From a phage, in sequence record M16226.1: 937 nt of DNA; one strand, written 5' to 3'. Each line of letters starts with the position of its first letter. Within the stretch, counting starts at the first letter, position 1. This document shows, in pieces, positions 15 through 766 of the stretch. Under the pieces are notes generated by a model. That model did no database searches. It was not told where the DNA came from and saw only the letters and a program-made list of their open reading frames with translations. The position numbers and the translations under genes are program-made.

Positions 15-128
15 ATGAAACGATGGTTTAATCACTGGTATAAACGGTTTTTAGTACGGCATCGCAAGTCTAGACAGCAAGATGATTGGCGGGAAATGGC
101 AAAGCGTAACAATTGCCCACTTCTCTGA
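15..128 (+). CDS. Short ORF encoding a 37-aa strongly basic peptide (MKRWFNHWYKRFLVRHRKSRQQDDWREMAKRNNCPLL); alternatively the C-terminal end of a longer CDS that begins upstream of the window
   Basis: ATG at 15-17 is preceded by a purine-rich Shine-Dalgarno-like GAGGGGG (4-10) with a short spacer; TGA stop at 126-128; a strand-specific intrinsic terminator follows 7 nt later. The frame has no stop between position 3 and the ATG, so an upstream start cannot be excluded. Absent from the supplied ORF track, presumably below its length cutoff. No homolog recognised from memory. Confidence 0.3.
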   Translation: MKRWFNHWYKRFLVRHRKSRQQDDWREMAKRNNCPLL

Positions 129-134
129 TAACCG

Positions 135-157
135 ACGGGGATCAGCTCCCCGTTTTT
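135..157 (+). terminator. Rho-independent (intrinsic) terminator
   Basis: Perfect 7-bp GC-rich stem ACGGGGA (135-141) / TCCCCGT (147-153) with 5-nt loop TCAGC, immediately followed by a T run (153-157). The reverse complement has no downstream U-tract, so it is + strand specific. It sits just after the stop of the 15-128 ORF. Confidence 0.55.
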
Positions 158-269
158 CACGCCTCCAGTTAAATCCCCCTTTGTTTTAGTATCCCCATCA
201 AAATTAAACGCGTTAGAATGCGATCTAGGACGTTTTAGGCATATATTAGAATTATTCACTGCGTAGGAA

Positions 270-289
270 TACTGTATAAATATACAGTA
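270..289. promoter_or_regulatory. LexA (SOS) box, CTGT-N8-ACAG type
   Basis: TACTGTATAAATATACAGTA matches 19 of 20 positions of the E. coli-type LexA consensus TACTGTATATATATACAGTA, with both CTGT (272-275) and ACAG (284-287) arms intact and an AT-only spacer. A -10-like TATAAA lies inside the box (275-280), but no convincing -35 was found on either strand, so the regulated transcript is not identified. Confidence 0.6.
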
Positions 290-297
290 GGATAACC

Positions 298-319
298 TGG
301 GGATAAGTCTGTTGATAAC
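298..319 (-). promoter_or_regulatory. DnaA box doublet (module copy 1)
   Basis: TGGGGATAA (298-306) and TGTTGATAA (310-318) each match 8 of 9 positions of the reverse complement of the DnaA box TTATCCACA. Start-to-start spacing is 12 bp. The 22-mer TGGGGATAAGTCTGTTGATAAC is repeated at 359-380 with 3 differences. Confidence 0.5.
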
Positions 320-358
320 GCTTCAAAATGGCTAGGATTTTGTCAAGGCGAATCGTGC

Positions 359-380
359 TGTTGATAAGTCTGTGGATAAC
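359..380 (-). promoter_or_regulatory. DnaA box doublet (module copy 2) including one perfect DnaA box
   Basis: TGTTGATAA (359-367, 8/9) and TGTGGATAA (371-379, 9/9, i.e. a perfect TTATCCACA on the - strand), again 12 bp apart. Second copy of the 22-bp module at 298-319. Confidence 0.6.
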
Positions 381-542: not shown

Positions 543-766
543 TGTGCAAATCCGACATTTGCCCCCATGGATTACGCGTGGGCGTGTATGTGCAAATCCG
601 ACAATTTTTGGTAGTGTGCGAATCCGACCCGAAAAATTTTTATAGTGTGCAAATCCGACAATGAATTTTCCCAAAAACTCCAGCAATCACGAACTGCGTT
701 CGAATCCTGTGGAATTAGCTAGAGTATGTGCAAATCCGACATGTGTTGAGATGTGCGAATTCGACA
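543..766 (+). repeat. Array of six 15-bp direct repeats (iteron-like), consensus TGTGCAAATCCGACA
   Basis: Four exact copies at 543-557, 589-603, 646-660 and 727-741; variants TGTGCGAATCCGACC at 615-629 and TGTGCGAATTCGACA at 752-766; a degenerate copy around 694-710. All are in the same orientation. Start spacings are 46, 26, 31, 81 and 25 bp. Most copies are followed by a short T/A tract. Confidence 0.6.

Follow-up and report, generated by a model that had tools for sequence, protein, structure and literature searches.

The window analyzed here, a stretch of 937 nucleotides of phage DNA (sequence record M16226.1), was matched by 508 phage records in a megablast search, the best match being Escherichia phage T5 at 99% identity. 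[quoted passage not shown] T5 is a virulent phage that injects 8% of its genome, pauses and expresses its pre-early genes, with A1 and A2 being needed for transfer of the rest. The elements that characterize the T5 injection stop region, namely the non-coding stretch at the inner end, the arrangement IRD'-spacer-IRC', the repeats DRC/DRE and the repeat DRD, are all present, and all of the sub-features map onto the window, with one 70-bp repeat unit of AY587007 (9504-9573) being absent from it. The features are listed below in window coordinates, with the strand given where one applies.

134 to 153, plus strand: palindrome C, which would act as a rho-independent terminator at the end of the rightward pre-early operon (T5 annotation)
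251 to 278, minus strand: weak promoter-like hexamers TATACA-16-AATAAT, with the -35 within the LexA box, reading leftward (inward) (9 of 12 matches)
270 to 289: LexA box, or palindrome D (consensus match, matrix score, T5 annotation and family-wide conservation)
290 to 297: 8-bp linker GGATAACC from the LexA box to the first DnaA box (length 7-9 bp across the lineages examined)
298 to 318, plus strand: first DnaA-box pair TGGGGATAA-gtc-TGTTGATAA, with 3-bp spacing, inside inverted repeat D' (272-312)
319 to 358: conserved DNA between the DnaA pairs (column conservation over 29 distinct sequences)
359 to 379, plus strand: second pair of DnaA boxes, TGTTGATAA-gtc-TGTGGATAA, within inverted repeat C' (364-402)
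408 to 519: A+T-rich direct repeats and palindromes (DRC/DRE and palindromes E-I; T5 annotation)
532 to 539: counterpart of the T5 major single-strand nick 1, at 7.9% of the genome (T5 annotation mapped onto the window)
543 to 766, plus strand: six copies of the 15-bp iteron DRD TGTGCAAATCCGACA (motif count and T5 annotation)

The annotated "palindrome D" of AY587007 (9330-9349) is the LexA box, and it overlaps inverted repeat D'. The initial annotation had placed the box 8 bp ahead of the first DnaA box and downstream of the terminator of the preceding open reading frame, and both statements are correct, with the box ending at 289, the DnaA box starting at 298 and palindrome C being the terminator in question. 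The four DnaA-type boxes (298-306, 310-318, 359-367 and 371-379) all lie on the plus strand, and none of 200 shuffled sequences reached four, just as none of 200 reached the six copies of DRD. DnaA in vivo prefers box pairs that are spaced by 2-3 bp (PMC11317965), a rule that the 3-bp spacing of both pairs in the window fits. Between the two inverted repeats, IRD' and IRC', lies a spacer described as a constant 52 bp (Davison 2020), while in the DNA between the DnaA pairs TGTCA at 341-345 is invariant and, together with T340, reads as TTGACA on the minus strand. The blender-shear point estimated for the first-injected DNA (T5 9618) corresponds to window position 488. This estimated point is about 160-290 bp away from the LexA box and the DnaA pairs, which lie inside it and are thus among the last DNA to enter before the pause.

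LexA-like sites in the terminal repeat

The sequence at 270-289, TACTGTATAAATATACAGTA, differs from the LexA consensus TACTGTATATATATACAGTA only at the central position 10, where A replaces T. The 19/20 match reported in the initial annotation was thereby reproduced, and both shuffles and simulations place it far beyond chance. When the window was searched for the LexA consensus with up to 3 mismatches, 270-289 was the sole match, and in 200 dinucleotide-preserving shuffles no match was obtained. Less exceptional is the bare core CTGT-N8-ACAG, which, with at most one mismatch, is expected 0.10 times per shuffle. For scoring, we built a weight matrix from an informally compiled set of 24 E. coli LexA sites, and made it symmetric. 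The box, for which such scoring had been proposed as a check, reached 25.8 bits and exceeded every one of these training sites (13.4-24.0 bits). When the 10.1-kb T5 repeat was simulated 2000 times with a first-order Markov model, sites of at least 20 bits occurred at a rate of 0.0005 per repeat, with a top score of 21.5. The box presents the 16-bp dyad CTGT-N8-ACAG with an A/T-rich spacer and, on this informally compiled matrix, a score in the range of validated sites. We therefore agree with its earlier assignment to the gammaproteobacterial type, and consider the sequence to be of operator quality.

Scanning the whole T5 genome with the same matrix revealed strong sites in the terminal repeat only, two in each repeat, at 9330 (25.8 bits) and at 6135 (20.8 bits; CACTGTATAAATATACAGGG), while the best LexA-like score in the unique region of about 100 kb was 16.1 bits. 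The window element has an inverted partner, IRC-spacer-IRD, whose right end is the site at 6135. This mirror unit lies 3.2 kb to the left of the stop-region unit and in the opposite orientation, in a long intergenic region, with its box between the divergent pre-early promoters T5P3 and T5P4. As the site at 6135 ends the inverted partner, the two boxes face each other across the rightward pre-early operon, with the DnaA pairs outermost. A similar restriction is seen in the complete genome of Vibrio phage VF16, where the sites above 13 bits (25.1, 24.2 and 14.4) are all in the repeat and the best score elsewhere is 12.5. The mirror copy is absent from Providencia phage PR1, and in VF16 it has no adjoining DnaA pair. 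Since it also lies 3.2 kb from the stop point, a single mechanism may not cover both copies.

Recurrence in T5-like phages

To collect close relatives, protein A2 was used as an anchor in IMG/VR, which yielded 40 loci; a prior scan by the DnaA-pair pattern had given mostly unrelated contigs. Both boxes are present in 39 of the 40 A2-anchored loci, the exception (L159) holding too little upstream DNA. Scores in this set range from 23.8 to 25.8 bits for the stop-region copy and from 16.5 to 25.8 bits for the mirror copy. Beyond the close relatives, two boxes were found in phage My1 of Pectobacterium (25.0 and 23.9 bits), Roth37 of Klebsiella (25.7 and 25.8 bits), AAS21 of Pantoea (25.0 and 23.6 bits) and Stubb of Proteus (19.1 bits, near the repeat end, and 24.2 bits). 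PR1 of Providencia has the stop-region copy alone (19.4 bits), and the boxes of the Vibrio phages AG74, VF16 and 70E35.5a score 22.2-25.1 bits. The unit of DnaA pair and LexA box recurs in T5-like phages of Escherichia, Salmonella, Klebsiella, Pectobacterium, Pantoea, Proteus, Providencia and Vibrio. For protein A1, identity between the Vibrio phages and T5 is only 31-34%. In every lineage in which the DnaA pair adjoins the box, the order of DnaA pair, 7-9 bp and LexA box is kept in constant orientation. When the box and the first DnaA pair were searched together as one 57-bp query, 699 phage records matched, and in 575 of them at least 80% of the query was covered. Shewanella phage KASIA, which has an A1 homologue and lacks the T5 genome layout, has no box, and phage pVp-1 was left out of the box comparison, as its record starts elsewhere in the genome and the repeat is not captured.

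In a set of 29 distinct close relatives, no block is more conserved than the box, with a mean column identity of 0.96 and 14 of its 20 columns invariant, but the whole non-coding region is also strongly conserved (0.87-0.95), and conservation at this depth is therefore not specific to the box. When the whole repeats of T5 and VF16 are aligned, the top DNA alignment is the box together with the DnaA pair (79% over 52 bp), which ranks above the coding DNA of A1 and dmp. These comparisons support the composite LexA-plus-DnaA unit as a probable hallmark of the first-injected DNA in the T5 family.

Changes that were tolerated within the box are also informative. Among 22 distinct variants, CTG...CAG is kept in 20, and at positions 6-15, apart from a flip of the central AA/TT, every change breaks the dyad and is left without compensation on the other arm. 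The tolerated variants CTGG, GTAC and CACAG are known from natural LexA sites. As single-stranded DNA, the palindrome folds weakly (-5.1 kcal/mol). A hairpin or cruciform was rejected on the basis of this weak fold and of the lack of compensatory substitutions, and the substitution pattern points to readout by a LexA-like protein rather than to selection for a hairpin.

Alternative readings of the box

A LexA box is ordinarily sought next to a promoter, and promoter-like hexamers do overlap the box in T5 (9 of 12 matches). The window contains 3 such pairs against 2.3 expected, and in these regions pairs of this quality arise by chance about 3 times per 700-900 bp. At the mirror box of T5, the hexamers TATACA-16-TATTAT lie on the plus strand and also read inward, so that both T5 boxes overlap TATACA-16 followed by a -10 with 5 of 6 matches, aimed inward. 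By our estimate, chance would be unlikely to produce such an inward arrangement at both boxes, provided that these are independent of each other. In relatives the picture varies. The stop-region box of the Vibrio phage AG74 has TATACA-17-TATTAT, and in VF16 and Stubb promoter-like hexamers overlap the left boxes and are aimed at the same operon as in T5. The box overlaps the -35 in T5 and Stubb, and the -10 in VF16, while in AAS21 no promoter-like site overlapping the box was found. A -10 with at least 5 of 6 matches is present in 13 of 30 distinct modules and is not kept in the Epseptimavirus-type, My1, AAS21, Stubb, PR1 and L163/L164 lineages. A conserved inward promoter was rejected on these grounds, with the -10 in 13 of the 30 modules and the geometry differing by lineage, and a LexA-repressed weak promoter, which T5 itself may have, is not the conserved property of the element. 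Candidates for what such a promoter might serve fared no better. A minus-strand open reading frame (32..259) was rejected as a gene under the box, being variable in length and interrupted in relatives, and a structured RNA was rejected after an Rfam search of the region, in which the best E value was 0.35 or higher. The alternatives offered in the initial annotation, a small RNA or a minus-strand transcript, may still apply to T5, although its weak hexamers are not conserved in relatives. The view of the initial annotation that the box has no obvious protein-coding target in the window was borne out, there being none downstream and the minus-strand frame not being conserved.

These observations bear on the most conventional explanation, a classical SOS operator, in which LexA would repress a weak sigma-70 promoter that has its -35 (TATACA) within the box. 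At the stop region this promoter would read leftward and give a transcript, antisense or non-coding, across the 3' end of the pre-early operon that runs rightward, the mirror-copy promoter would read rightward into that operon, and breakdown of host DNA by A1, or prior DNA damage, would lift repression. To our knowledge, all characterized LexA boxes of such quality are transcriptional operators, which counts against any non-operator role, and the identical 20-mer is found just upstream of tumA in a temperate phage. The hexamers at both T5 boxes and in AG74, and those over the left boxes of VF16 and Stubb, agree with this explanation, as does the dispensability of the rightward operon, by which LexA control there would be compatible with growth on recA hosts. 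Joint repression by LexA and DnaA is moreover known for the host genes uvrB, recN and dinJ (PMC6015884). Against this stand the loss of the -10 in many lineages, the dependence of the geometry on lineage, the abundance of chance hexamers and the absence of a conserved downstream open reading frame or RNA family, while strong pre-early promoters, annotated or predicted, lie about 110-230 bp from the mirror box. We consider an operator rather unlikely, though the most likely of the rival readings. Another explanation is that the palindrome is read by a phage protein, either A2 or a complex of A1 and A2, or acts as a DNA structure, so that its likeness to a LexA site would be incidental or a form of mimicry. 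Palindrome D is among the candidate cleavage sites for a hypothetical A1/A2 endonuclease (Davison 2020), A2 is essential for second-step transfer, its family is annotated as "DNA binding protein", and the central A/T tract of the box is more uniform than that of host SOS boxes. However, the 19/20 consensus is kept from Escherichia to Vibrio phages, whose hosts all share the LexA motif, and LexA would bind regardless of any phage reader; the tolerated box variants are those known from natural LexA sites; and the weak hairpin and absent compensatory changes speak against a structural role for palindrome D. Nor does A2 resemble LexA. A Pfam search of 18 pre-early open reading frames gave a LexA-like domain in none, A2 had zero matches among PDB sequences, and its AlphaFold model (pLDDT 82) is all-helical, with a best Foldseek match at E = 0.48, which is not significant. 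A phage mimic of LexA was rejected on these domain, sequence and fold comparisons, and nothing in the sequence or the predicted model speaks for binding of palindrome D by A2, which is not supported as its reader. Altogether, readout by a phage protein or as a structure appears improbable.

The initial annotation had proposed a LexA-repressed promoter reading into an origin, by which replication of the element would be coupled to DNA damage, as in the induction of prophages and islands. In the corresponding model, an origin would be made up of the DnaA boxes, A+T-rich repeats and iterons, and its firing would be tied to DNA damage by the LexA box. The layout does resemble that of oriC-type arrays and iteron plasmid origins, with co-oriented DnaA pairs 3 bp apart (four DnaA boxes in all), A+T-rich repeats and six 15-bp iterons. 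Davison described the region as reminiscent of oriC, one T5 protein is annotated as "replication origin binding protein", and the T5 gene exo2 contains two more copies of the iteron (79019 and 79034). Unlike those origins, the region is not the mapped start of T5 replication, has no Rep or initiator gene nearby and shows no plasmid similarity at megablast sensitivity. Electron-microscopy studies put the T5 origins near the genome center, and at the time of first-step transfer the cell does not yet contain the replication genes (both Davison 2020). An origin of a plasmid or island was rejected, as T5 matches and megablast gave nothing among 72,556 plasmids or in the complete genomes of 5,426 E. 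coli, and a plasmid-like carrier lifestyle that would need an origin was rejected in view of the persistent fraction of the T5 cluster, which is only 0.03, this cluster being under-represented among "persistent" phages in bacterial assemblies. What remains of the resemblance to an origin is the sequence layout alone. Nor is an SOS-inducible switch of the prophage or island type supported, as the window is the iss of virulent T5, of the virulent family Demerecviridae, the T5-like phages have no lysogenic switch and no gene lies downstream of the box. Given the central origins, the lack of an initiator gene, the virulent family and the low persistence, the origin-switch reading is unsupported, and we regard it as highly improbable. 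Processing or packaging of the terminal repeat offers a different kind of explanation, in which the box and the DnaA sites would form a host-factor site that bends or marks DNA near the repeat boundary, in the manner of IHF at lambda cosB. The 15-bp iterons would then be terminase or nickase sites, and the element would serve the injection pause only secondarily, if at all. Between the box and the inner repeat boundary there are 200-1030 bp in all of the phages whose repeat is annotated (T5, My1, VF16, Stubb and PR1), the iterons straddle that boundary in T5, and iteron-like motifs also flank the AG74 element. The distance from box to boundary is nonetheless variable, the mirror copy sits in mid-repeat, far from any end, and LexA might be depleted by late infection, if our inference is correct. 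We give a packaging role little credence.

A possible role in two-step DNA transfer

The reading that we prefer, and hold tentatively at somewhat less than even confidence, is that 270-289 is a candidate host LexA site that has been kept by selection at close to maximal quality and that, with DnaA, would form a host-factor complex at the edge of the first-injected DNA. LexA dimers and DnaA, both already in the host, would occupy their sites once the first 8% of the genome has entered, and this occupancy would precede any phage protein. At the inner edge of the stop region, the resulting nucleoprotein complex would have an architectural role: it could form a boundary or roadblock, or belong to a host-factor complex that holds the DNA at the pause until A1 and A2 act. 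Under this model, the complex would be neither the operator of a gene nor a switch on an origin, and phage growth would proceed with no requirement for RecA-dependent cleavage of LexA. An objection to such an architectural model is that proteins bound to DNA that has already entered would have to stop the DNA behind them, and this speaks against it. A bolder version, in which LexA and DnaA are the long-sought host factor of T5 two-step injection and the DNA is caught, or its entry gated, in a manner that reports the DNA-damage and replication state of the host, seems to us quite doubtful.

The need for LexA cleavage can be judged from the recorded hosts. T5-like phage ESCO40 carries an intact box, and its recorded host is E. 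coli DH5alpha, a recA1 strain. The occurrence of a box-bearing phage on this host indicates that RecA-dependent LexA cleavage is not needed for productive infection. Obligatory cleavage of LexA as the trigger of the second step was accordingly rejected, and the simple model in which breakdown of host DNA induces the SOS response and so releases the pause is argued against.

The locus itself has been described before. Palindrome D and the arrangement IRD'-spacer-IRC' of T5 (Heusterspreute et al. 1987; Wang et al. 2005; Davison 2020) are the same locus as the window, for which the palindrome, the inverted repeats, the DnaA boxes, the iterons and the nick have all been annotated or described, and in the stop-signal literature consulted palindrome D has been treated as an unexplained palindrome or a possible cleavage site, where we find the identity of a LexA box. 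The only host factor named there for the T5 stop region is DnaA, with IHF and Fis mentioned in passing, and T5-family papers from 2023-2026 describe the stop signal in terms of repeats, palindromes and DnaA boxes, with no experimental test. The terms "LexA" and "SOS" have 0 occurrences in Davison 2020 and in three of these later papers. Our literature search found no work linking LexA or SOS boxes to T5 or its relatives, with an earlier mention in Heusterspreute 1987 or Davison 2015 being possible. The locus, the palindrome and the DnaA boxes were thus already known, and what appears to be new, no earlier mention having been found, is the identity of palindrome D as a LexA box.

The stop of T5 transfer after 8% of the genome and its restart have been a puzzle since the 1960s, and the LexA box offers a second host-factor candidate that is specific and easily manipulated, as lexA(Def), lexA(Ind-) and recA hosts exist and reverse genetics of T5 is now available. 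If the proposed role is true, it would be unusual for a strictly virulent phage family to keep high-affinity LexA sites that have no obvious gene.

Two known systems come close to the T5 unit. At uvrB, recN and dinJ, LexA and DnaA boxes are adjacent or overlapping, which resembles the T5 unit, and both proteins bind there (PMC6015884); those sites overlap mapped promoters of protein-coding genes, whereas the T5 unit has no conserved promoter or gene. The other is the tum operator of temperate P2-like phages of the 186/PSP3 type, with which the T5 box shares an identical 20-mer. In the P2-like phage PSP3, TACTGTATAAATATACAGTA lies 21 bp upstream of tumA, which the record annotates as serving UV induction of the prophage. 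Unlike the tum operator, which stands upstream of a gene and acts in prophage induction, the T5 box has no downstream gene, belongs to a virulent phage and is joined to a DnaA pair. The 20-mer occurs by itself in 600 of 5426 E. coli genomes, in none of which the DnaA pair accompanies it, and in the one context that was checked (H149) it lies upstream of tumA-like and DinI-family genes in a P2-like prophage.

Sites adjoining the LexA box

The LexA box (window 270-289) and the adjoining DnaA pair (298-318) are accompanied by a further site:
Window 287-295, minus strand: TTATCCTAC, a third DnaA-like 9-mer, degenerate

This 9-mer overlaps the final three bases of the LexA box (287-289) and is separated from the DnaA pair by 2 bp, so that LexA binding and extension of a DnaA oligomer could compete with one another in the T5 group. 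It is absent from the Vibrio phages compared. In the stop region of these phages, the second DnaA box is also adjoined by a degenerate LexA-like box:
L172 6914-6933: CCATGTATAAATATACAGTT, 14.4 bits
L168 410-429 (phage AG74): CAATGTATAAATATACAGTT, 16.3 bits (written with its DnaA side upstream)

As the second DnaA box thus has its own LexA-like neighbor, the LexA/DnaA unit is duplicated in tandem in the Vibrio-phage stop region.

Conserved non-coding motifs

Inward of the LexA boxes, the non-coding DNA holds a family of deeply conserved motifs (CTAAAACGYCCTAG, AAACGCTCTR and TTCTAAGCG; window about 195-240), which accompanies both the box in the window and its mirror copy from T5 through the Vibrio, Proteus and Providencia phages. 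In the loci L163-L167, L172-L174 and L176, the distance from each LexA box inward to the motifs is about 45-60 bp. Conservation is also seen halfway between the two DnaA pairs, where all of 29 sequences share TGTCA (window 341-345) and about 90% have T340. Read on the minus strand, positions 340-345 give TTGACA, a perfect -35 hexamer. The mirror module likewise has a TTGACA in its spacer, at T5 6077-6082, and neither hexamer is followed by a recognizable -10 element.

Repeats and divergence from the T5 records

Downstream, the window carries a short iterated element:
Window 543-766, + strand: 15-bp iteron TGTGCAAATCCGACA, six copies

In T5 (AY587007), copies of this iteron occur at 9672-10409, on both sides of the repeat boundary, with an additional copy at 12073 and a tandem pair within the exo2 gene (79019 and 79034). 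A closely related motif, TGTCGGATTTGCACC (other strand), is repeated in Vibrio phage AG74 (L168 1-190), where the repeats adjoin the LexA/DnaA unit of that phage.

Compared with all three T5 genome records, the window is one 70-bp unit short in the A+T-rich DRC/DRE repeats:
Window 443: missing DRC/DRE unit, corresponding to T5 AY587007 9504-9573

Besides 12 substitutions, the majority of which are clustered at 923-933, the window has one base pair inserted at 523 and three deleted at 880. Because of the missing unit, these indels and the substitutions, the window is a T5 variant or an older version of the sequence.

Pre-early protein A2 and a small basic ORF

One of the pre-early proteins needed for second-step DNA transfer is encoded as follows:
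L003 3726-4133, minus strand: T5 A2, essential, Pfam PF26822

Its predicted fold is all-helical and two-part (pLDDT 82), and the model has no significant match among solved structures. Six A2 homologues (P0008, P0012, P0023, P0026, P0029 and P0054) are database entries under bacterial isolates, labeled Salmonella, Citrobacter, 'Brucella melitensis' and 'Enterococcus faecalis'. The contigs bearing them are about 51-123 kb long, most being 110-123 kb, and are T5-like genomes within bacterial assemblies, reflecting either a carrier state or contamination.

The window further contains an unannotated, very basic ORF of 37 amino acids (MKRWFNHWYKRFLVRHRKSRQQDDWREMAKRNNCPLL; 15-128, + strand), whose product has no match in Pfam or PHROG. 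The ATG of this ORF and the T5.017 stop codon overlap as ATGA, and 5 bp separate its end from the putative palindrome C terminator downstream. The ORF is present in five relatives, with amino acid substitutions.
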